Assembly (NCBI GenBank): GCA_947625505.1
Contig: CANQON010000002.1
Location: 73,984 to 137,983, forward strand
Source of the DNA: an uncultured Bacilli bacterium
Lineage (GTDB): Bacteria; Bacillota_I; Bacilli_A; RF39; UBA660
Length of the DNA stretch: 64,000 bases
Direction of reading: 5' to 3'
The notes under the pieces were generated by a model that was not told the DNA's origin, ran no database searches, and saw only the letters and a program-made list of their open reading frames with translations. Positions 1,528 to 57,834 of the stretch are shown here, piece by piece. The translations under genes and the position numbers were made by a program. The number at the start of each line of letters is the position of its first letter. Position 1 is the stretch's first letter.

Positions 1528-4500
1528 ATGAGGTGTTTTAAAACTTGTAGCAAGCTATTAATGGTTATGATATTATCTTTTTTTATGTCAATACCAATTA
1601 GTTTTGCTCGTGAAATGACAATTAATGATTTAGAAGAGGAGTTAGAAAAGAGAGAAGGAGACATTGAATCTGCATATATTATAGGAAATTATGTATTTAC
1701 CTCTGATTATTATGATAAGATGGATTTACCTGATTTTATGTTATCTTCTACTAGTATTGATGTCAGTGATATTAATGGTAAAGTAAAAGATGACTTTATA
1801 TACAAGGAAATGACTATTTTTCAATTAAATAGGCCAATGGATGATAATGGTGAACGTAATCAGTTAGTTCCTACTAATAATTTAGTTGGACTTACTAATT
1901 TACCTGGAACATTAAATATCAAATATATTGATTATGATTTTCTTAAAGAGTTATATAAGGTAACTTTTAATGCTGATAATGGTGAAGAAAATAAAGTTAT
2001 TAAGGTAGAAGATGGTTCAACTGTTGCTATACCAGATACACCTGTCAAAGAGGGTTTCTATTTTGATGGTTGGTATAAAGATGGTGCTAAATATGAATTT
2101 ACTACTCCAATAACTGAGGACATTACTTTAACTGCTAAGTGGTTAGAAGTCGAAGATGTAGATAATGATACAGAGGATATACTAAGTGATTTAAGTTCTG
2201 ATTATTATGAAGCAGATCGTACTGAAGGCAAGATTACTATTAATATGCTTAATGGTCGTCTTAAATTAAGTGAAGTAACTGATGAATCAAATGTTTTTGT
2301 AGCACTTACTTCTTTATTAAGTAATAAAGGTGTTAATAAAGTAACTATATCTTATCCAGGTGTTGAAGCTTTAGAATTAACTGGTAATGGTGTTGGTGAT
2401 GTTGCTACTAATACTGCTAAAACAACAAGGTGGCTACAAACTAATATGAATACTATTGCTAGTAAAACTTATGATGAAGTGTTACAAAAAGATCTAGTTG
2501 GTAAGAAATTTACTGTTACTATTGATTTAAAAGATGGTTATGTAACTAATGGTGGTGATACTAAAGTTACTTATACTATTGATTTTACAGCTGTAGTTAA
2601 ATATGATGTTACTTTTGATTATAATGATGATGGAGTAACAGATAATAAAAAAGTTCAAATATTAGAAAATGATACAATTGAATCTATTGAAAATCCAACT
2701 CGTGAACATTATGATTTTGTAGGTTGGTATAAAGGTGAAGAAAAATTTGAAGTAAATACTCCTATTGCAGAAGATATTACTTTAAAAGCTCATTGGAAAG
2801 GTAAAACTTATACAGCTACTTTTAAAGGGGAAGGAATAGATACTTCTAAGTATCCTGCTCAATCAGTTGAATATCCTAACCTTATAACTGAGCCAGATGA
2901 AGAACCAACTATGGATGGACATTCATTTACTGGTTGGTTTGTTGGTGAAATAGAATTTAACTTTAGTGAACCTTTAACTGGTAATGTTGAAATAGAAGCT
3001 GCTTGGGATGTAAATAAATATACAGTTGAATTCTTTGATGATAAAGAAACTTCAATTAGTAAAGAAACAGTTAAACATGGATCTACTTTATCTGCTCCAG
3101 AAGATGCAAATAAGAAAGGACATAACCTAACTTGGAAAAAAGATAGTACAAGTGGGGAAGATTATGATTTAAATACTCCTGTAACTGGTGAGTTAAAATT
3201 ATATGCTTCTTATGAACCTTTTAAATATACAATAAAATTTGCTGGTGATGATATTAACAATGGTGAAGAAAATGTTATACCTGATCAAGAGTTAACATAT
3301 CCTACTAAGGCTAGTAGACCTACTGAACCAAAAAGAGAAGGATATACTTTTGATAATTGGTATTTAGATAGTGAAGAAGAACCATTTGATTTCAATGAAG
3401 AAATCTTAGCTGAAGGAGATATTACTTTAACAGCTAAATGGACAGCAAATGTTTATCATGTAAAATATGAATGCGAAGATTGTAAAGGAAATTTACCATT
3501 AGATCAAGATTATACATATCCTAATAAACCATCAAAACCAACACTTAATCCTTCAAAAACAGGATATGATTTCTTATATTGGTATGATAAAGATAGTGAA
3601 GATCAAACTGAATATGATTTTGCAAATACTAAGTTATTAAAAGATTTAACTTTAGTTGCTAAATTTGATGCTCATAAACAAAATGTTAAATTTCAAGTTT
3701 GTGATCCAACTGATAAAACATGTGTAGCAGAAAGTATTACTAACGTACCTGATACTTTAAGAGTTGAATATGGTACTAAAGCAACAGAACCTACACAAAA
3801 GCCTGAGAGAGAAGGGTATGATTTCTTATATTGGTTTGATATAAATCCTCCATTTACTCAAGCTCCATTTGATTTTAACAATACTAATATAATAAGAGAT
3901 TATACATTACGTGCTAAATGGGAAAAGAAAACATATAATATAACATTTAAAGTTGATGATAATGTATTAGAAACATTAAATGGGGTACCACATGGAACAA
4001 CTATTAATGAAGCTCTTAAATCAGCTAATAAGACATTATCACCATATAAAGAGAGTTATCGTTTTGATTATTGGTACTTAGAAACTGAAGAAGATACTAC
4101 TGAATATAGTTTCTCAACGCCTGTAACAAGCAATTTAACATTAAAAGCTAAGATGATTCCACAAGTTGATATTGATAATATTGTTAGTGATATGGCATTA
4201 AAAATTAAATCAGATATTTTTGCTGCTTCATATCTTAATAGAACTTTAGTATTTGATATATCTGAAGGTGGAGATGATCATTCAGATGCTCATAATGATG
4301 ATAAAGTAAAAGATATCGTTGAAAGCGGAAATACAGGAATTGTTACTTCTATTAAAGGAGTAGTTGATAATGAAAATGTATCAAGTGTTAAGATGCATTA
4401 TGGTGAAACAGATTACGAATTTACTGGTACTGAAGAAAATATTAAGAGTAAGTTAGTTGAATTACTTACAGCTATTGCTACTACAAATGGTAGTACTTAT

Positions 4501-11356: not shown

Positions 11357-12208
11357 ATGAAATGGTATTCGGGTCGTTATGACAGAGCTTTTAAAGAGGT
11401 CATGTTAAAAGAATCTAATCAAGATATCTTAAAATCATTGTTAGAGAAAATCCTTAATCTACAAATTAGTTCTATGCGTATTTTAAATAATGAACGTTTA
11501 AGAGATAATGTTCATATAAAAGGACAAAGGCTTGATCTTATCTTAGATACTAATATTGGTAAAATTAATGTTGAAGTTAACTCAAGCTATAAAGATTACG
11601 TTAGATATCGTAATACAGCCTATCTATGTGATATCTATGCTCATGATATTTTAGTAGGACATAACTATGATGGGAATATGAAATATATTCAAATAAACTT
11701 ATCATATGATTTAGGATATAATAGTGGAAGTATCAATATATATAAAATAAAAAATGAAGAAGATAAGACATATATCGATAACTTTATCATTTATGATGTA
11801 AACATGGATTATTATATGAACTTATGGTATACTAAAAGTGAAGAGATAAAAGATAATGTCATGTTAGTAATGATAGGATTAGAGAAAGAAGAACTAACAA
11901 AGTTATCGAAAAAAGATAGGATGGTATCACGATATATGAGCGAATTAAATAAAGTAAATGAAGAACCAGAGTTTAGAGAATACATGAGTTACGAAGAAGA
12001 TCAAAGAAAGATAAGGAATAGCTTAATAGCTGAAAGTAGAGCTGAAGGCCTTGAAGAAGGACACGAAAAAGGTCTTGAAGAAGGAAAGAATGAGCGTAAT
12101 AAAGAGATAGCTAAAAAATTACTTGAAAAAGGTATGGCAATTGATTTTATAATGGATACGACAAACATGACTGAAGAAGAGATTCTAAAATTAAAGGAAG
12201 AGAACTAA
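11357..12208 (+). CDS. Rpn-family / PD-(D/E)XK nuclease 'transposase-like' protein
   Basis: N-terminus D-R-A-FKEVM...ILKSLLEKIL. Nuclease core RLDLILDT...INVEVN...RYRNTAYLCDIY. Characteristic C-terminal EG-repeat helix plus tail (AEGLEEGHEKGLEEGKNERNKEIAKKLLEKGMAIDFIMDTTNMTEEEI). Confidence 0.65.
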   Translation: MKWYSGRYDRAFKEVMLKESNQDILKSLLEKILNLQISSMRILNNERLRDNVHIKGQRLDLILDTNIGKINVEVNSSYKDYVRYRNTAYLCDIYAHDILVGHNYDGNMKYIQINLSYDLGYNSGSINIYKIKNEEDKTYIDNFIIYDVNMDYYMNLWYTKSEEIKDNVMLVMIGLEKEELTKLSKKDRMVSRYMSELNKVNEEPEFREYMSYEEDQRKIRNSLIAESRAEGLEEGHEKGLEEGKNERNKEIAKKLLEKGMAIDFIMDTTNMTEEEILKLKEEN

Positions 12209-12245: not shown

Positions 12246-12274
12246 TTGACTTTTAAAAACATTTGTAGTATTAT
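12246..12274 (+). promoter_or_regulatory. Sigma-A-type promoter for the leader and ABC/GNAT operon
   Basis: TTGACT (12246-12251), 17-nt spacer, TATTAT (12269-12274). Confidence 0.55.
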
Positions 12275-12286
12275 CTTTGATGTCGA

Positions 12287-12384
12287 GTGAGTATGTATAA
12301 GATTTTTCGAGCTACATAGGGTTAATAACTTACACGTTGTATTAAAACACGGAGTCACTATTAATAGTACTTCGTGTTTTTTTG
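12287..12384 (+). ncRNA. Unclassified structured leader element, copy 1 (aptamer-like hairpins plus intrinsic terminator)
   Basis: GTGAGTATGTATAAG...CGAGCTACATA forms hairpin TATGTA/TACATA. A second hairpin is GGTT-AAT-AACT. Then ACACG, followed by the terminator ACACGGAGT...ACTTCGTGT and T7. Local G+C island. Confidence 0.6.
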
Positions 12385-12419
12385 TTTTGGAATTACTATT
12401 ACGACACTTAATATTTTAG

Positions 12420-12512
12420 GTGAGTATGTATAAGTTTTACGAGCTACATAAGGGATTGCACCCTACACGTTTACACGGAGTCACATTATGCAATAGCGAC
12501 TTCGTGTTTTTT
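12420..12512 (+). ncRNA. Unclassified structured leader element, copy 2 (aptamer-like hairpins plus intrinsic terminator)
   Basis: Same conserved blocks as copy 1. The second hairpin has a different sequence but is still paired (AGGG-ATTGCA-CCCT). Terminator ACACGGAGTC...GACTTCGTGT followed by T6. Confidence 0.6.
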
Positions 12513-12555
12513 CGTATATTTTATAGTATAATTAAAAAGAATAGGAGGATGAAAG

Positions 12556-13539
12556 ATGAATGAGAAAGCTATTATTGTAAAGAACTTATCTAAAACTTTT
12601 AGAGTTAAAGAAAAAGAAAAAGGCTTCAAAGGGAGTATAAAAAGTATTTTTAAAACGAAATATCGTGAAATAAAAGCTGTTAATGATTTATCTTTTGATG
12701 TTGATAAAGGTGAGATATTAGCTTTTATAGGACCTAATGGAGCAGGAAAAAGTACAACTATTAAAATGCTTACAGGAATATTATTCCCAGATCAAGGAAC
12801 AGTAGAAGTAATGGGAATAGATCCTAAAAAGAAGCGTAAAAAACTAGCTTATGAAATTGGTACAGTATTTGGACAAAAAGAACAATTATGGACCCATTTA
12901 ACACCTTATGATAACTTTAAATTCTTTGGCGCTATATATGATATCGACGATTATACAGTTGAAAAAAGAATTAAAGAATTAAAGGATATGTTTGAATTAG
13001 ATGAATTCATTAATACACCTGTCCGTAATTTGTCTTTAGGTCAAAGAATTAGATGTGAAATTGTAGCTTCCTTAATACATAAACCTAAAATATTATTCTT
13101 AGATGAACCTACGATTGGATTAGATCCTGTTGTTAAAGAAAATATTCGTACCCTTATTAAAAGAATGAATAAAGAATATCATACAACAGTCTTTTTAACT
13201 AGTCATGATGTAGGTGATATCGAAAAGTTATGTAAAAGAATTATTATTGTTAATCATGGACAAATAGTTTTAGATGACTCTATGGAAAACTTAAAGTATC
13301 ATTATTTAAATAAAAAAATCGTTGAAGCTAAAATGAAAGAAAAAGTTAATTTAAATGATGAAGATGGTATTACTATTTTAAAAGACAAAGGTTATAACTT
13401 AAAAATAGAAGTAGATACAACGAAACGTAGTGTCGGTGACGCTATTAAATTATTAAATCCTAATAATATTATTGATATTAATATATCTAATATTCCTTTA
13501 GAGGATATTATTAGTGATATTTATAAGAGGGATAAATAA
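12556..13539 (+). CDS. ABC transporter ATP-binding protein
   Basis: Walker A GPNGAGKST, signature LSLGQR, Walker B ILFLDEPT. AGGAGG RBS. Confidence 0.9.
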   Translation: MNEKAIIVKNLSKTFRVKEKEKGFKGSIKSIFKTKYREIKAVNDLSFDVDKGEILAFIGPNGAGKSTTIKMLTGILFPDQGTVEVMGIDPKKKRKKLAYEIGTVFGQKEQLWTHLTPYDNFKFFGAIYDIDDYTVEKRIKELKDMFELDEFINTPVRNLSLGQRIRCEIVASLIHKPKILFLDEPTIGLDPVVKENIRTLIKRMNKEYHTTVFLTSHDVGDIEKLCKRIIIVNHGQIVLDDSMENLKYHYLNKKIVEAKMKEKVNLNDEDGITILKDKGYNLKIEVDTTKRSVGDAIKLLNPNNIIDINISNIPLEDIISDIYKRDK

Positions 13540-14330
13540 TGCGTAAATACTTATATATATTTAAATCAGAAGTTATGACGAATATGCAATATATCTTTAA
13601 TCTATTAGTAGGTTTTATTAGTTATTTTATCTTAATCTTTATCTTCTTAAATCTATGGAAATACATTTATAGTGATTCTAATGAATTAATTAATGGCTAT
13701 AATATGAATCAAATGATATGGTATGTTATTATTACAGAAATATTATGGATGAGTTTAGGAGGACGTAAATTATGTCGTAAGATATGTGAAGATGTAAGAG
13801 GGGGAAACATTGCTTATAATATTAATAAACCTTATAGTTATATCGGATATATTTTATCTAGTCATTTAGGTAGTGTTGTTGTTAAAGGAAGTATATTTAC
13901 TATTTTAGGTATGTTATTAGGCCTTATCTTCTTAGGTAAGTTTCCTCATTTAACATTATTTAGTATTATCATAGTTTTAATTACCTCTCTTTTAGCAACT
14001 ATTATTAATACTTTATTTGTTATTTTTATTGGATTATTTTCTTTTATTATTGAAGATGCTAACCCATTCTGGTGGTTATATAGTAAAGTAATTTTAGTAT
14101 TTGGTACTTTATTTCCAATTGAGTATTTTCCAGGTATTATTAAAACAATCTTAAGTTATAGTCCAATATATGCTGTATCATATGGACCTGCTAAACTATT
14201 TGTTGACTTTAGTATTCCAAATATGGTTAATGTTATAATTGTTCAAATTATTTACTTAATAATTATTTATGTATTATGTTTATTAATATATAGGAAAGGG
14301 GTGAGAAAATTAAATGTTAACGGTGGTTAA
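13539..14330 (+). CDS. ABC-2-type permease (first of two)
   Basis: Polytopic membrane protein. Its start codon abuts the ATPase gene's stop codon. Confidence 0.75.
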   Translation: MRKYLYIFKSEVMTNMQYIFNLLVGFISYFILIFIFLNLWKYIYSDSNELINGYNMNQMIWYVIITEILWMSLGGRKLCRKICEDVRGGNIAYNINKPYSYIGYILSSHLGSVVVKGSIFTILGMLLGLIFLGKFPHLTLFSIIIVLITSLLATIINTLFVIFIGLFSFIIEDANPFWWLYSKVILVFGTLFPIEYFPGIIKTILSYSPIYAVSYGPAKLFVDFSIPNMVNVIIVQIIYLIIIYVLCLLIYRKGVRKLNVNGG

Positions 14331-15117
14331 AAATATCAAGAATCAACTTAAAGTATCTTTTTTAACAGTTAAATATGCATTGATAAGAGAAATGATTAAT
14401 AAGACAACCTTCTTAACTAATATTACTTTTATGATTTTAAATGATGCTAGTTTTATATTACAATGGATTGTATTATATGCTCTTAAAGATAATGTTGGAG
14501 GATATACTTTTAATCAAGTATTACTATTATGGGGTATAGCTGCTGGTACTTATGGATTTTCTCATTTCTTCTTTGAAAGTGCTTTTAACTTATCAGATAC
14601 AATTAATAATGGTAAACTAGATGCTTTCTTAGTTCAACCTAAAAATGTTTTAATTTCTACTATTACAATGAGTATTAGTGCATCGGCTATAGGTGATTTA
14701 GCGTATGCTTATATTATGTTATTTGTATTCGGGTTTACAATTAAAAATTTCTTATTATTTACTTTATTTTGTTTTACAGGTAGTTTAATTATAGTTAGTA
14801 TAGCTATTATCTTAGGTAGTTTATCTTTCTGGTTTAATAAATCTGATGTAATAGCTGATACAGGTAATAGCTTATTAACTAACTTTGCAACATATCCTGA
14901 TGGAATATTTAAAGGTATTACTAAAATATTATTTTATACCATTCTTCCTTTAGGTTATGTAGCTTATATGCCTGTTCAAATATTATCAAGTTTTAATATC
15001 AAATTATTTATACTTGTTATAAGTATAACCATTATGTTTATTACTTTAGCAGTCATTACATTCTATAGAGGATTAAGAAGATATTCATCTTCTAACTTAA
15101 TGATAGCTAGAACTTAA
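14314..15117 (+). CDS. ABC-2-type permease (second of two)
   Basis: Polytopic membrane protein. Overlaps the upstream permease gene by 17 nt. Confidence 0.75.
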   Translation: MLTVVKNIKNQLKVSFLTVKYALIREMINKTTFLTNITFMILNDASFILQWIVLYALKDNVGGYTFNQVLLLWGIAAGTYGFSHFFFESAFNLSDTINNGKLDAFLVQPKNVLISTITMSISASAIGDLAYAYIMLFVFGFTIKNFLLFTLFCFTGSLIIVSIAIILGSLSFWFNKSDVIADTGNSLLTNFATYPDGIFKGITKILFYTILPLGYVAYMPVQILSSFNIKLFILVISITIMFITLAVITFYRGLRRYSSSNLMIART

Positions 15118-15143: not shown

Positions 15144-15965
15144 ATGTCGAGAGTTAATGTTAACTCAAAAGTTTTTAAGACAGAAGCTTATTTAAAAGAT
15201 CAATATAAATTTTCTTTAGTTAAACAAAATTTAGCTAGTGCAGAAGTACTTCTATATAGTGATGATGAGAATTATCTTTTGTGTCGTGGTAATGAAAAAT
15301 ATCCAACATGGGTATGGACTAAAGATCATCTTTCAAAAGATAAATATTTAGAAGTTATGGAATCGATGAAATATTATTTAACTAATAGAGAAAAAGATAA
15401 ATTTACTTGTAAAAAAGAATTTTATGATTTTTTAGTTCAAGAAAATTATACATATTTAAATCTAGAAGATTATTTTGAAATGGGCTTTTTAAGATGTTAT
15501 CAAGTTAAAGAGCCTAAAACGTGTGATGGCTATTTAGATCATGCTTTAGAAAGTGATTTAGATCTTTTAGCGCAGTATTGGTATCAATCTAATCAAGAAA
15601 TGGGAGTAGAAACAAAAACATATGAAGAAGCATATGAAGAAATGAAAGATTTATATTTAGATGATACATTTTATGTATGGCGTAATAGTAAACATGAGGT
15701 AGTTAGTATGGCGTGCTACCGAGTAACAGAAGATGTCGCAAAAGTAGGACATGTTTTTACTAGTAAAGAAGAAAGAGGAAAAGGATATGCGGCTAATTTG
15801 GTTTATGCTTTAACTAAGTTATTATTAGAATATAATTATGTTCCATTACTATATACCGATTTACATTATCCAGCATCTAATAAAGCATATCAAAATGTTG
15901 GTTATGAAGATGAAGGAATGTTAGTTAACTTTTCTTGTTCGAAAGTTAAAAAAGATAGGAGGTAA
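15144..15965 (+). CDS. GNAT-family N-acetyltransferase with an N-terminal extra domain
   Basis: Acetyl-CoA loop EERGKGYAANLVYALTKLLL in the C-terminal half. GGGGGTGA RBS. Confidence 0.65.
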   Translation: MSRVNVNSKVFKTEAYLKDQYKFSLVKQNLASAEVLLYSDDENYLLCRGNEKYPTWVWTKDHLSKDKYLEVMESMKYYLTNREKDKFTCKKEFYDFLVQENYTYLNLEDYFEMGFLRCYQVKEPKTCDGYLDHALESDLDLLAQYWYQSNQEMGVETKTYEEAYEEMKDLYLDDTFYVWRNSKHEVVSMACYRVTEDVAKVGHVFTSKEERGKGYAANLVYALTKLLLEYNYVPLLYTDLHYPASNKAYQNVGYEDEGMLVNFSCSKVKKDRR

Positions 15966-15967
15966 CT

Positions 15968-16561
15968 ATGGATAGATTAAATTTAGTAACACCAACACTA
16001 GAATATAAAGATGCAGCCATTGATTATATCAATGAGTTTATTAAGTATAATTCTGATATTAATGGTGTTGGAGGTTTAAATAGATATTTAGATGATTATG
16101 AGGGTTGGTTAGTTAAAATAGAAGAAGATAAAAATAGAATTCCAACGGAAGAAAAAGTACCCGCTTTAACTTATTTCTTAGTTAGAGAAAGTGATAATCG
16201 GATAGTTGGAATGATTAATATTCGTTTAGCATTAAATGAAAAGTTAAGGAAGGGTAGTGGACATATAGGTTATTCGATTAGACCTACTGAAAGAAGAAAA
16301 GGGTATAATAAAATAAATTTATATTTAGGATTAAAAGTATGCTTAGAACATGGCATTAAAGAAGTTATTATGGATTGCGATAAATCGAATATTGCATCTG
16401 CTAAAACAATGCTTGCTTTTGGAGCACACTTAGATCGTGAAGATTATATAGATTCTGATGGTGACTTAGTACAACACTATACAATTGATACTGAAAAAGC
16501 TATTAATGATAGCAAAGATATATATGAATCTGATAACAAAGTAAAGAAGGTGAAACAATGA
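15968..16561 (+). CDS. GNAT-family N-acetyltransferase
   Basis: Motif TERRKGYNKINLYLGLKVCLEHG. Starts 2 nt after the upstream stop codon. Confidence 0.65.
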   Translation: MDRLNLVTPTLEYKDAAIDYINEFIKYNSDINGVGGLNRYLDDYEGWLVKIEEDKNRIPTEEKVPALTYFLVRESDNRIVGMINIRLALNEKLRKGSGHIGYSIRPTERRKGYNKINLYLGLKVCLEHGIKEVIMDCDKSNIASAKTMLAFGAHLDREDYIDSDGDLVQHYTIDTEKAINDSKDIYESDNKVKKVKQ

Positions 16562-17100
16562 AATATTATCATAAGATAGATGGTGAAAAGATATATCTAT
16601 CACCTGTTAATATGGAAGATATTGATAAATATACTAAATGGTTTAATGATTTTGAAGTAACTAAAGGAGTACATGCTACACAAAAGTTAGTTAATCAAGA
16701 ACAAGAAAAAGAATCTTTAGAACAATTATTATTAAAAAGTCCTTATACATTTGCTATTGTAAGAAAAGATAATGATGAATTAATCGGTAACTGTAGTTTA
16801 AATAAAGTTAATTTTTTAGATGGTACGGCTACAATTGGAATCTTTATAGGAGAAGAAGAGAATCGTAATAAAGGTTATGGAACAGATACAATTAGAACTT
16901 TACTTAAGTATGGCTTTGATATCATTAATTTGCATAATATTGATTTAAAAGTTTTCTCTTTTAATGAAGGTGCTATTAAATGTTATCAAAAAGCAGGATT
17001 AAAAGAGTATGGCAGAAAGCATGAATGTTATTATTTAAATAATAAATATTATGATGAAATATATATGGAAATATTACGTGATGATTTCTATAATAATTAA
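16558..17100 (+). CDS. GNAT-family N-acetyltransferase (RimJ/RimL-like)
   Basis: Motif ENRNKGYGTDTIRTLLKYGF. ATGA start/stop overlap with the upstream gene. Confidence 0.7.
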   Translation: MKYYHKIDGEKIYLSPVNMEDIDKYTKWFNDFEVTKGVHATQKLVNQEQEKESLEQLLLKSPYTFAIVRKDNDELIGNCSLNKVNFLDGTATIGIFIGEEENRNKGYGTDTIRTLLKYGFDIINLHNIDLKVFSFNEGAIKCYQKAGLKEYGRKHECYYLNNKYYDEIYMEILRDDFYNN

Positions 17101-17135: not shown

Positions 17136-17190
17136 GACTTTGTAGTTATAAAATGCTACTATAAAAATGTTGGAACGTTTAGGGGGCAAA

Positions 17191-19665
17191 ATGATGAATA
17201 TAGCATTTGATATTGATGGTGTTTTAACAAATATTGAAAAATATCAATTAGAGGTTGCACGGGCTTTTTATAAAAAAAAGTACAATCGTGATATTGTAAA
17301 TCCCGAGGGATTTAGTGTTAAAGAAATTTATGATGTAACTGATGAAGAATTTATGGATTTTTGGTCTAGTCATTTACTTTCATATTCAATTAAGGAATTA
17401 TCAAGAGTAGGTGCTAGTGAGTGTATTAAAAAGCTTGCTAATGAGGGAAATAATATATTTATTATTACATCACGTGAATTAGCTGATAAAGATAATTTTT
17501 TAGGTAAATTAATGCGTTCAATTGTTAAATATTGGTTGAAACGTGAAGGGATTCCTTATAGTAAAATCGTTTTTTGTAATGGGGATAAGGTTGAGGCTAT
17601 TAAGCAAAATCAAATTCAAGTAATGGTTGAAGATGATCCTAAAAATATTACTAGTTTATGTGAATATGTTAAAGTAATATGTATGGATGCAGGCTACAAT
17701 GAAAAGATAAAACATCCTAATGTAACCCATGTCCGTAATTTTAATGATATTTATGAGGAAGTACAGCGTATTAGAAAAGATATACGAGCTTATTTAGATA
17801 ATCCTATTACTGCTCGTAGTGGTAAGATGTCTATAGATCAAGTACATCGTCGTTTTTATAATGAAAAACAGGCTAATTTATTTTTGACTGATGAATCAAT
17901 ATATGAGTTTGTTTATCGTAATAATAAAGATAATATGAGGTCATTAGCTATAGATTATTATGATCATAAAATGACTTTTAAAAACTTTTTTGACAAGGTT
18001 GATGAATGTGCAAGGGCTTTAGTAGCATATGGTGTTCATCGAAAAGATATTGTATCTATATGTATGCCTAATACACCAGAAGCTGTTATTATGGTTTACG
18101 CGATTAACAAAATTGGGGCAGTTGCTAATATGATTCATCCAATGTCTGGTGAGGAAGAAATTAAACATTATTTACAAGAAACAAATTCAAAATTTGTTTT
18201 AGCAATCGATATGTCTGTTGATAAATTAAAACGAATTATAGGGAATACAGGTGTAAATAAAGTTGTTGTTACAACTCCTGCTATCTCAATGCCAATGTCA
18301 AAACGTGTTGGATATAAATTTTTATCTTTTATTAAAAAATATAATATTACATCATTAAATGATTCTATTGATGAAAAATCCAATGTAAGATTTAGTTTAT
18401 CTCATAAATTTTTATCATTAGTGCCTAATAGTATTAAAAAACAAATGAAGAGTGTTACTCATGTTGAATTAGATAATGATACTTTTGTTAGTTGGAGTAC
18501 TTTTATTAAGTCAGGTAAGAAAATTAAAGGCGATGTTCATGCTAAATTTGATAAAGATGAAATGGCGTTTATTCTTCATACAGGAGGAAGTACTGGTGCA
18601 TCAAAAGGTGTTATGCTATCAAATGAAAATGTTAATGCTAATACTATTCAATTACAGTTTTCCATGCCTCCTTATCAAGCAGATGATAAAGTTTTAGCTA
18701 TTACACCAATATTTCATGGCTTTGGATTAGTTGATTGTATTCATAATGCTTTTGCTGTTAATATGTCTGTTATTTTACTGCCACAATATGAACGTGAAAG
18801 TTATACTAAAGCTCTTTTGAAAAAACCATTTTTAGTAATTGGTGTTCCTACTTTATTAGATTCAACCATACATCTAAAAGAACTTCAAAATATTGATCAA
18901 CCTTATACTTTATTTATTTCTGGAGGATCACCTTTATTTAGAGAAAAAGAAGAAGAGGCTAATGCCTATACTTTGAGTCATAATGGAAAATATTTAACTG
19001 CTAAAGGTGGAGGAATGACAGAAGCTACAGCTGCTTTCTCATTCACTATGGATGGAGCAAATAAACCTGAAAGCGTTGGAGTTCCTTTACCATTAAATAA
19101 AATTAAAATTATTGATCCAACTACTGGTAATGAGTTAGGACCTAACGAACAAGGGGAAATATGTATTTGTGGTCCAACTGTTATGTTAGGATATTATAAT
19201 GATGAAGAAGAAACTAGAAAAGCTTTACAAGTTCATGAAGATGGTAAGACATGGCTACATACAGGTGATGTTGGATATTTGGATGAAGATGGAATATTAT
19301 TTTATACAGGCCGTATTAAACGTATGATTATTTCATCTGGTTATAATATATATCCACAACAAATCGAAAAAGTATTTATGCAACATCCTAATGTTTGTGA
19401 TACTGTTATCATTGGTATTCCTGATGATCATAAGGGACATGTTGCTAAAGCATTTATTGTTCTTAAAAATAAAAATGTTAATATTGAACGTTTAAAGAAA
19501 GAAATATACGATTTATGCTATAAACATTTAGCTAAATATGCAATTCCTATTGAAATAGAAGTTGTTGATAGCTTACCTAAGACTTTATATAATAAAACTG
19601 ATTTTAGAAAAGTTGAAGAGGAAGAATTAGAAAAGATAAAAGGATATCAAAAGGTATTAAAATAA
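17191..19665 (+). CDS. Fusion protein: N-terminal HAD-like (5'-nucleotidase-type) domain plus C-terminal acyl-AMP-forming ligase (acyl-CoA/ACP synthetase family)
   Basis: Track ORF is 17167..19665. I prefer ATG 17191 (AGGGGG RBS). HAD motif I is IAFDIDGVLTN. Adenylation motifs: HTGGSTGASKGV, GGGMTEATAA, GEICICGPTVMLGYYND, HTGDVGYLDEDG, PKTLYNKTDFRK. Confidence 0.8.
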   Translation: MMNIAFDIDGVLTNIEKYQLEVARAFYKKKYNRDIVNPEGFSVKEIYDVTDEEFMDFWSSHLLSYSIKELSRVGASECIKKLANEGNNIFIITSRELADKDNFLGKLMRSIVKYWLKREGIPYSKIVFCNGDKVEAIKQNQIQVMVEDDPKNITSLCEYVKVICMDAGYNEKIKHPNVTHVRNFNDIYEEVQRIRKDIRAYLDNPITARSGKMSIDQVHRRFYNEKQANLFLTDESIYEFVYRNNKDNMRSLAIDYYDHKMTFKNFFDKVDECARALVAYGVHRKDIVSICMPNTPEAVIMVYAINKIGAVANMIHPMSGEEEIKHYLQETNSKFVLAIDMSVDKLKRIIGNTGVNKVVVTTPAISMPMSKRVGYKFLSFIKKYNITSLNDSIDEKSNVRFSLSHKFLSLVPNSIKKQMKSVTHVELDNDTFVSWSTFIKSGKKIKGDVHAKFDKDEMAFILHTGGSTGASKGVMLSNENVNANTIQLQFSMPPYQADDKVLAITPIFHGFGLVDCIHNAFAVNMSVILLPQYERESYTKALLKKPFLVIGVPTLLDSTIHLKELQNIDQPYTLFISGGSPLFREKEEEANAYTLSHNGKYLTAKGGGMTEATAAFSFTMDGANKPESVGVPLPLNKIKIIDPTTGNELGPNEQGEICICGPTVMLGYYNDEEETRKALQVHEDGKTWLHTGDVGYLDEDGILFYTGRIKRMIISSGYNIYPQQIEKVFMQHPNVCDTVIIGIPDDHKGHVAKAFIVLKNKNVNIERLKKEIYDLCYKHLAKYAIPIEIEVVDSLPKTLYNKTDFRKVEEEELEKIKGYQKVLK

Positions 19666-57650: not shown

Positions 57651-57655
57651 AAAAG

Positions 57656-57834
57656 TGCTAAAAGATATGGTTTGCTGAATTATGAAAAACCTACTAATTA
57701 ACGTATTGGGAGTTAAAGTAATATATGCTGTGTTGAAGACCTTTTAATTAAGGGATCCTGACGCCTATAGCTTGACACCCACCTGGTAGAACAGGTTTTA
57801 ATCGTTAACTGGCGCCGATCTTTTGGCTTTTTTT
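57656..57834 (+). ncRNA. Unclassified ~180-nt structured RNA (stand-alone sRNA or 5' leader of the acyltransferase gene)
   Basis: Local G+C island. A closing helix GCTAAAAGAT (57657-57666) / GATCTTTTGGC (57817-57827) is followed directly by T7. Internal helices: GGTTT/AAACC (57669-57691), TTAACG/CGTTAA (57698-57703 / 57803-57808), TGGGAGTTAA/TTGACACCCA (57707-57716 / 57772-57781), GCTGT/ATAGC, CCTT/AAGG and CCTG-GTAGAA-CAGG. Confidence 0.55.

Follow-up and report, generated by a model that had tools for sequence, protein, structure and literature searches.

The NiCo (czcD) and Mn2+ (yybP-ykoY) riboswitches are four-helix ON switches with conserved junction bases, in which anti-termination turns on efflux. 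Terminator-based ON switches for exporters and GNAT acetyltransferases are also known from the guanidine riboswitches (I-IV) and Gd4v, an orphan motif that is enriched in gut metagenomes and is linked mostly to transaminase genes (PMC9788692). Two complete units of one riboswitch class can be arranged in series, as in the tandem TPP units of Bacillus anthracis, which make the response steeper and more digital (Welz & Breaker 2007; review PMC9481103). Here, we describe a tandem leader RNA from an uncultured Bacilli bacterium of the RF39 lineage (assembly GCA_947625505.1, contig CANQON010000002.1, positions 73,984 to 137,983 of the forward strand). The 64,000 nucleotides analysed are referred to as the window, and positions are counted from its first letter. 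The leader, marked previously in a first-pass annotation of the window, precedes genes for an ABC-2 type exporter and three GNAT acetyltransferases. Each of its two units is probably a transcription-attenuating riboswitch of the ON type, from a class so far uncatalogued.

The element shares with the NiCo/czcD and yybP-ykoY riboswitches the four-helix architecture, the conserved junction bases, and the control of exporters, but has no sequence or model similarity to them (cmscan negative). Furthermore, the acetyltransferases and the nucleoside and nucleotide hydrolases among the regulated genes argue against a metal-ion ligand. Guanidine-IV riboswitches and the Gd4v motif, the latter being the closest candidate in the literature, are formed by two hairpins joined by a pseudoknot (PMC9788692), whereas the element described here is a four-helix junction. 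Gd4v is linked mostly to a transaminase (PMC9788692), and the present motif to ABC-2 exporters, GNATs, and nucleoside phosphorylases. Identity with guanidine-IV or Gd4v was rejected, since the architecture differs and there is no cmscan match to the mepA model; in sequence, too, the element is unrelated to the guanidine riboswitches and Gd4v. As in the known tandem riboswitches, two aptamers of the same class, each with its own terminator, stand in series in one leader; the differences are that the aptamer class is apparently new, and that tandem use is unusually frequent, in about a quarter of the orthologous operons.

The comparison with known RNAs covered the 4227 models of Rfam 15, which include T-box, SAM, TPP, purine, ykkC/guanidine I-IV, ZTP, fluoride, Mn2+, NiCo, yjdF, and raiA. 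At gathering thresholds, no family was assigned to the motif in the window, in agreement with the first-pass annotation, which could match the core to none of the known motifs that it listed. At E<=10, the window leader returned only noise, the best match being RF02398, the Staphylococcus small RNA sau-6072, with 20.9 bits compared with a cutoff of 50. The string ACAYGGAGUCACAU, a hairpin, and a U-run are shared by sau-6072 and the second terminator of the leader, to which the match is limited, with no coverage of the aptamer. As the identity of the motif, sau-6072 was rejected, and its sub-threshold, partial likeness may be due to chance; a literature search for its name yielded nothing on the locus. 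Eight other diverse members of the motif family gave no Rfam match at E<=1, and no family on the motif was assigned in 16 orthologous loci without the motif or with a distant one. ANTAR-type dual hexaloops, T-box, PyrR, and RAT were also rejected, as their loop sizes and conserved blocks do not fit.

Tandem units and their four-helix fold

The two copies of the element are located head to tail on the + strand, at 12287-12384 and 12420-12512. They share the blocks GTGAGTATGTATAAG, CGAGCTACATA, ACACGTT, ACACGGAGTCAC, and ACTTCGTGT followed by T7 or T6, as the first-pass annotation had described, yet two short stretches between these long identical blocks are completely different. The block ACACGGAGTCAC occurs twice in the window, compared with 0 expected occurrences. 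Each copy closes with a long hairpin abutting a T-run, which bears out the proposal that every copy has its own terminator. The G+C contents of the two aptamers, 0.34 and 0.43, exceed those of the flanks (0.18-0.23) and of the whole window (0.27), and both copies are, as noted before, G+C islands.

The conserved fold of about 75 nucleotides consists of four helices (P1-P4) arranged around a junction, with the consensus GUGAG-[6 nt]-UAAR-[variable hairpin]-YGAGC-[6 nt]-GGG-[loop]-CCU-ACAC-R...Y-GGAGUCAC. P1 is formed by (A)GUGA/UCAC(U), P2 by the two 6-nt blocks, P3 by GGGn/nCCU, and P4 by CG.../...CG. Within P2, the internal loop UAA(R)/(Y)GAGC is conserved and a hairpin named P2a is variable. 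The junction strands G, ACA, and GAG are near-invariant across the family. The UAA/GAG internal loop appears to resemble the recurrent UAA/GAN tertiary motif. Of the fold outlined in the first-pass annotation, the two hairpins persist: hairpin 1 (UAUGUA/UACAUA) is P2, and hairpin 2 is P3 (GGGU/ACUU in one copy and AGGG/CCCU in the other), with a genuine compensatory difference between the copies. That outline was incomplete, and the addition of P1, P4, and the variable P2a turns it into a four-helix junction.

The pairing was evaluated in two alignments. For alignment A2, of 91 distinct aptamers from orthologous loci, the structure was written down and a covariance model, R1, was built; alignment A4 was made independently from metagenome copies. 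The proportion of paired cells is 93.4% in A2 (77.5% after shuffling) and 94.1% in A4 (76.3% after shuffling). The covariation score reaches 0.408 in A2, compared with 0.169 for shuffled alignments and 0.03-0.13 for slid controls, and 0.515 in A4, compared with 0.191 and 0.03-0.11, respectively. None of 500 shuffles of A2 and none of 500 shuffles of A4 attained the observed score, and double changes are carried by 16-17 pairs. Covariation in homologues, the absence of which would have refuted the first-pass annotation, is strong for both of its hairpins. P2 is paired in 100% of the cells of A2 and 99.8% of those of A4, with compensatory changes at all six pairs, and occurs, for example, as UAUGUA/UACAUA, UAUGCA/UGCAUA, GAGAUA/UAUCUC, GGGAUA/UAUCCC, AGCGCA/UGCGCU, and GUACC/GGUAC. 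The first pair of P3 is kept as G-U in 89 of the 91 sequences of A2. In P4, a G:C to A:U exchange (ACACG...CGGAG to ACACA...UGGAG) is present in 11 sequences of each alignment.

Overlap with the terminator and the proposed switch

In the window, the P4 3' strand and J4/1 (the junction strand between P4 and P1) of each unit are also part of its terminator. The 5' arm of terminator 1 reuses them together with the beginning of the unit 1 P1 3' strand, and terminator 2 overlaps them and the P1 3' strand of its own unit (Table 1). The calculated energies are -24 kcal/mol for terminator 1 compared with -7.4 to -10 kcal/mol for its aptamer, and -24.2 kcal/mol for terminator 2 compared with -9.6 to -12.9 kcal/mol. 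A simple terminator scanner missed both hairpins, the loops of which are longer than its 8-nt limit. The same overlap was surveyed in 178 unique units, in which a U-run was sought within 90 nt. It is present in 175 of them, at a median distance of 19 nt after UCAC, and a predicted hairpin abuts it in 154 of these 175. At least three of the four UCAC bases, which form the P1 3' strand, are paired inside the terminator hairpin in 149 of the 175 units (about 85%), and GGAG and the P4 3' strand are often also included. The P1 3' strand can pair either in the aptamer or in the 5' terminator arm, so that the two structures cannot coexist. With a terminator of -24 and an aptamer of -7 to -13 kcal/mol in the window, the default state should therefore be termination, and since the two structures exclude each other, a stabilised aptamer should prevent termination, which is the behaviour of an ON switch.

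The antiterminator/terminator switch put forward in the first-pass annotation is retained as far as the element is mutually exclusive with its terminator, but the helix proposed for the switching is not. It was to be formed by ACACG, competing for the CGUGU 3' arm of the terminator. Instead, the C and G of ACACG pair with the CG before GGAG to form P4, as the G:C to A:U covariation indicates, and the ACACA/UGGAG subgroup has a terminator without that 3' arm altogether.

The TTGACT-17-TATTAT promoter recognised in the first-pass annotation was confirmed and is the sole forward-strand sigma-70-like promoter of the leader region. It is positioned directly 3' of the terminator hairpin of the upstream PD-(D/E)XK transposase-like gene, and transcription should start from it at about 12281, a few bases 5' of the unit 1 fold. 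Of 81 first or single copies among the relatives, 64 have a promoter-like -35/-10 pair ending 6-14 nt before GUGA, but only 1 of 19 tandem second copies has one there. This placement of the promoters means that the fold begins at the very 5' end of the messenger RNA, and the lack of promoters before second copies means that the second unit of a tandem depends on read-through of the first.

In the mechanism that we propose, transcription would start just 5' of unit 1, and the first ~75 nt would fold into the P1-P4 junction. Without an effector, the P4 and P1 3' strands and GAG would join the more stable terminator and transcription would stop (OFF). A small-molecule ligand would stabilise the junction before the polymerase reaches the terminator 3' arm, so that P1 and P4 stay closed, the terminator is blocked, and the polymerase reads on; the switch would then be of ON polarity in vivo. 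In the window, two such gates in series would precede the ABC-2 exporter and the three GNAT genes, an arrangement that would sharpen the dose-response and lower leakiness. The steep, ligand-dependent response that the first-pass annotation attributed to the tandem may be of this kind.

An additional helix may form around the units of some loci. Within one sub-clade, AAGUCGAG at the transcript's 5' end is complementary to CUCGACU located just after the terminator U-run; the helix would enclose the whole unit and could form only after read-through. This helix between the 5' flank and the post-terminator segment (AGUCGAG/CUCGACU) has 6-9 bp with p<=0.04 in loci L022, L027, L032, L033, L066, L069, L075, L080, and L084. 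In the window, UGUCG at 12281-12285 is complementary to CGACA at 12402-12406, which amounts to 5 bp only, with p about 0.1. Since the helix is weak in the window and significant in one sub-clade only, it was kept out of the core model.

Table 1. Positions of the leader elements and regulated genes in the window, and of the alternative leader in its own loci (R1, bit score and E-value of the covariance model)
Feature	Position	Strand	Details
Promoter-like site	12246-12274	+	-35 TTGACT 12246-12251, 17-nt spacer, -10 TATTAT 12269-12274; 10 of 12 positions match
Unit 1 aptamer	12286-12359	+	Four-helix junction; R1 78.7 bits, E 2.6e-19
Unit 1 P1	12286-12290 / 12355-12359	+	AGUGA / UCACU
Unit 1 J1/2	12291	+	G
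Unit 1 P2	12292-12297 / 12313-12318	+	Internal loop UAAG 12298-12301 / CGAGC 12308-12312; tiny P2a
Unit 1 P3	12319-12331	+	
Unit 1 J3/4	12332-12334	+	ACA
Unit 1 P4	12335-12351	+	
Unit 1 J4/1	12352-12354	+	GAG
Terminator 1	12344-12383	+	5' arm AAAACACGGAGU 12344-12355, 3' arm ACUUCGUGUUUU 12369-12380, T7 12377-12383
Unit 2 aptamer	12420-12484	+	R1 64.5 bits, E 2e-15
Unit 2 P1	12420-12423 / 12481-12484	+	GUGA / UCAC
Unit 2 P2	12425-12430 / 12445-12450	+	
Unit 2 P3	12451-12454 / 12461-12464	+	AGGG / CCCU
Unit 2 J3/4	12465-12467	+	ACA
Unit 2 P4	12468-12477	+	
Unit 2 J4/1	12478-12480	+	GAG
Terminator 2	12473-12512	+	5' arm ACACGGAGUC 12473-12482, 3' arm GACUUCGUGU 12498-12507, T6 12507-12512
Start of first regulated gene	12543-12558	+	Strong ribosome-binding site, Shine-Dalgarno AGGAGG 12543-12548; ATG 12556
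ABC-2 type exporter	12556-15117	+	ATPase 12556-13539; ABC2_membrane_6 permeases 13539-14330, 14314-15117
Three GNAT acetyltransferase genes	15144-17100	+	15144-15965, 15968-16561, 16558-17100
Alternative Clostridia leader	L059 3825-3965, L067 3826-3966, L068 3719-3860, L076 3753-3905, L081 3801-3941, L082 3751-3891		

Distribution, regulated genes, and candidate ligand

The highly conserved ATPase of the exporter was used as the query of a genome scan, which yielded 80 orthologous loci, mostly from gut and rumen 'Bacilli' metagenome-assembled genomes of the RF39 / 'Mycoplasma sp. CAG:877' type. Block searches and the reading of upstream regions located the element in most of these loci, often in more than one copy. 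R1 identifies 99 copies in the 80 loci, with scores of 55-85 bits and nothing weaker up to E=0.1, and two copies only in the window. Each of the 99 has the orientation of the ATPase gene and stands upstream of it, and the scattered repeat, which the first-pass annotation had named as an outcome that would refute it, is not what was found. Two complete aptamer-plus-terminator units in tandem, 40-100 nt apart, recur in 18 of the 68 motif-bearing orthologous loci, in addition to the window, where they were proposed initially, and in more than a dozen metagenome loci among the matches listed. Some loci have an extra unit placed before a separate upstream gene.

Metagenome contigs were scanned independently of context with a degenerate pattern built on the motif's 3' two-thirds, which matched at least 120 stretches. 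Among the matches listed, the first 80 stretches gave 86 copies confirmed by R1, in 72 of them, and the other 40 gave another 49. The family thus comprises at least 236 R1 matches of 45-85 bits, plus one truncated copy at 24.9 bits; no other R1 match was found across the DNA scanned, up to the E-value limits used (0.01 to 10). The metagenome copies were sampled in the human gut, the rumen, bioreactors, fermentations, sediments, and wetlands, G+C contents reach 0.53, and the names of adjacent proteins point to Clostridiaceae, Thermoclostridium, Ruminiclostridium, and relatives of the cultured Lutispora thermophila and Clostridium species. Nearly all copies with room on the contig directly precede a gene of the same orientation. 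In viral contigs, the pattern had three matches, all of which fail R1, and a BLAST search of plasmids with unit 1 gave no match. The family is large, belongs to Bacillota, and is chromosomal.

The genes downstream of the motif are diverse. Among the matches listed in the metagenome sample, 68 first downstream open reading frames (ORFs) were scanned, of which at least 24 encode GNATs, 18 ABC ATPases of this exporter type, 4 PNP_UDP_1 nucleoside phosphorylases, and 2 MFS transporters; the rest include a NUDIX hydrolase, a NIF3 protein, and a GlnRS-type synthetase. Further genes of motif-bearing operons encode more GNATs, ABC2_membrane_6 permeases, type I phosphodiesterases, NTP_transf_2 nucleotidyltransferases, S51 and S66 peptidases, methyltransferases, HD-family hydrolases, and a second GlnRS. 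Searches with the regulated proteins against NCBIfam and PDB sequences returned generic or sub-threshold names only. The window ATPase comes closest to a DrrA-like NCBIfam model, whose cutoff it does not reach, and the third window GNAT has its nearest relatives of solved structure in an AAC(6') aminoglycoside acetyltransferase and SpeG spermidine acetyltransferases. Across the family, the nearest solved relatives of the regulated GNATs are AAC(6'), SpeG, and RimJ/RimL-type enzymes and, weakly, MccE, and those of the phosphorylases are uridine, MTA, and purine nucleoside phosphorylases.

Such diverse, non-homologous downstream genes, with several GNAT subfamilies among them, are the usual pattern of a metabolite-sensing RNA, not of an autoregulatory protein site. 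The regulon looks like an induced detoxification by acetylation, cleavage, and export, which favours an amine-bearing toxic compound as the ligand. The ligand is likely to be such a compound, on which the regulated proteins act by acetylation, cleavage, or export; a polyamine, an antibiotic of the aminoglycoside or aminonucleoside type, and an amino-acid or aminoacyl-nucleotide analogue are candidates. In two loci, a GlnRS/GluRS-type synthetase gene is located directly 3' of a motif copy (L117 5442-7157 and L168 8113-9828). This cargo is unusual for a detoxification switch and possibly hints at an aminoacylation inhibitor.

Several conserved proteins are encoded just upstream of the exporter operon and have a motif copy of their own. 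They include a 193-residue protein (L013 3228-3809) with its relatives, a 268-residue protein (L058 3155-3961), proteins of 283-288 residues (L007 2989-3855 and L049 3017-3868), and a 161-residue protein (L020 3441-3926). These motif-preceded proteins of the ortholog set have no Pfam or NCBIfam match.

Clostridia-type orthologues of the ATPase carry a different conserved leader, CUUGYAGC..GCAUAGCUGCARG..GACAUGU..UAUGCAAAUACGGAAUGGG followed by a long terminator, which contains a conserved hairpin (Table 1). It has no Rfam match, and R1 with filters off found nothing in the Clostridia-type orthologous loci, so that this leader is a different element; it may control the same operon as another switch, unrelated to the first. 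We suggest tentatively, at less than even probability, that the motif described here is a riboswitch for a type of ligand that no validated riboswitch is known to sense, a polycationic or amine-bearing toxin such as a polyamine or an antibiotic of the aminoglycoside or aminonucleoside type, and that the Clostridia leader has converged on the same signal. If so, such toxins would directly switch on acetylation-plus-efflux detoxification in anaerobes of the gut and of fermenters. In L034 (~3800-3990), L037 (~3790-3930), and L054/L055 (~3800-3985), the segment between the motif terminator and the ATPase gene holds a short ORF, 21-23 codons long, that has a strong ribosome-binding site and precedes a hairpin. 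A possible role is that of a leader-peptide attenuator, as a second layer of control.

In the window, the GNAT genes are directly followed by a gene (17167-19665, +) for an 832-residue fusion of an NT5C 5'-nucleotidase and an AMP-binding acyl-CoA-ligase-like protein. The gene upstream of the leader (11357-12208, +) encodes a PD-(D/E)XK transposase-family protein. Six metagenome contigs with an identical ATPase (L001-L006) all break inside this gene, which suggests a repeated element in the host organism. A 6S RNA gene, the sole Rfam 15 match of the window at gathering thresholds, is located at 57652-57833 (+; Rfam RF00013, 66.2 bits).

Alternative explanations and implications

The units combine a covarying structured domain, a position in the co-oriented 5' leader of non-homologous genes, and an expression platform that excludes the aptamer, all of which are expected of a riboswitch. 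Several points weigh against this assignment. Ligand sensing is proposed from the RNA structure and the gene context, to which a protein or another macromolecular effector would also fit, and the gene associations single out no one compound. The P1 core, GUGA/UCAC, is almost invariant, so that covariation says little of its pairing, and the fifth P1 pair is unpaired in 25-40% of the sequences. The invariance at the 3' end is inflated, as both the seed set and the metagenome pattern demanded GGAGTCAC-like 3' ends. A literature search, outside which most subscription papers lay, came upon neither the motif nor its sequence blocks nor a gene-named equivalent. In P1 itself, U-A is changed to U-G three times in the ortholog alignment, a single copy, L108 (AACGA/UCGUU), is fully double-compensated, and the helix is further supported because it is mutually exclusive with the terminator.

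The same fold could be the site of a trans-acting RNA-binding protein or another macromolecule which, when bound, would keep P1 and P4 closed and thus anti-terminate. Protein-mediated anti-termination would account just as well for the structure and for the overlap with the terminator, and several small conserved proteins without annotated function, encoded directly 3' of motif copies, could in principle be regulators. However, no candidate regulator gene is shared by the motif-bearing loci, and none is located between the window leader and the exporter. The known targets of anti-terminator proteins are short hairpins, whereas here about 35 near-invariant bases of a four-helix junction of ~75 nt have been kept across Bacilli and Clostridia, and the regulated genes are heterogeneous detoxification and export genes. 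A protein effector is therefore unlikely. The unit could also be mainly a small RNA gene, the ~100-nt transcript of which acts in trans, with read-through into the operon being incidental. The terminated transcript of the Listeria riboswitch SreA acts in trans, unit 1 has its own promoter and terminator, and the weak similarity to the Staphylococcus sau-6072 points in the same direction. Against this stand the location of the motif directly upstream of a co-oriented gene in 99 of 99 ortholog cases and in nearly all metagenome cases with room on the contig, the scarcity of promoters before tandem second copies (1 of 19), and the nature of the sau-6072 match, which is below the cutoff and covers one terminator only. 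Small RNA genes are thus a very improbable explanation, and a trans-acting role of the terminated transcripts, which is possible, would be secondary.

A further explanation is ribosome-mediated attenuation. An AUG inside the first conserved block opens a putative leader peptide (AUG UAU AAG ...) in both window copies, on which a stalled ribosome would set the terminator, and some relatives have separate short ORFs with strong ribosome-binding sites 3' of the motif (L034, L037, L054). Nevertheless, a 1-nt indel puts the shared CGAGCUACAUA in different frames in the two window copies, the AUG has no ribosome-binding site at a normal distance, and the variation tracks base-pair compensation, not codon structure. 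As the frame is not conserved and the large GAGAUA-type subgroup has no AUG at that place, the leader-peptide attenuator is effectively refuted, with hardly any probability left to it. The element might also act as DNA, whether as operator sites, as what is left of a mobile element, or as a generic repeat between genes beside the PD-(D/E)XK gene, which belongs to a transposase family and within which contigs of the same organism often break. This explanation, the least probable of all, is effectively refuted by strand-specific RNA covariation, including conserved G-U pairs, such as that opening P3, which are meaningful only in RNA of this strand. Moreover, there are only two copies in 64 kb, their orientation relative to the gene is strict, and neither the plasmid search nor the scan of viral contigs gave a confirmed copy. 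We regard the motif as a well-supported, apparently undescribed candidate for a riboswitch class of the terminator-based ON type, and not as a new type of system.

If confirmed, this riboswitch would add a widespread orphan class with an unusually clean covariation signal. The motif is common in poorly studied gut Bacilli of the RF39-like type and in Clostridia of gut, rumen, bioreactor, and sediment. Cultured carriers exist, with relatives in Lutispora thermophila and Clostridium species, so that the question is directly testable. The frequent tandem arrangement offers a natural system for how serial switches shape the dose-response. Once identified, the ligand would bring to light a toxic compound of importance in anaerobic communities, and would also give functions to many unannotated GNATs, an uncharacterised ABC2_membrane_6 exporter family, and several proteins annotated without function.

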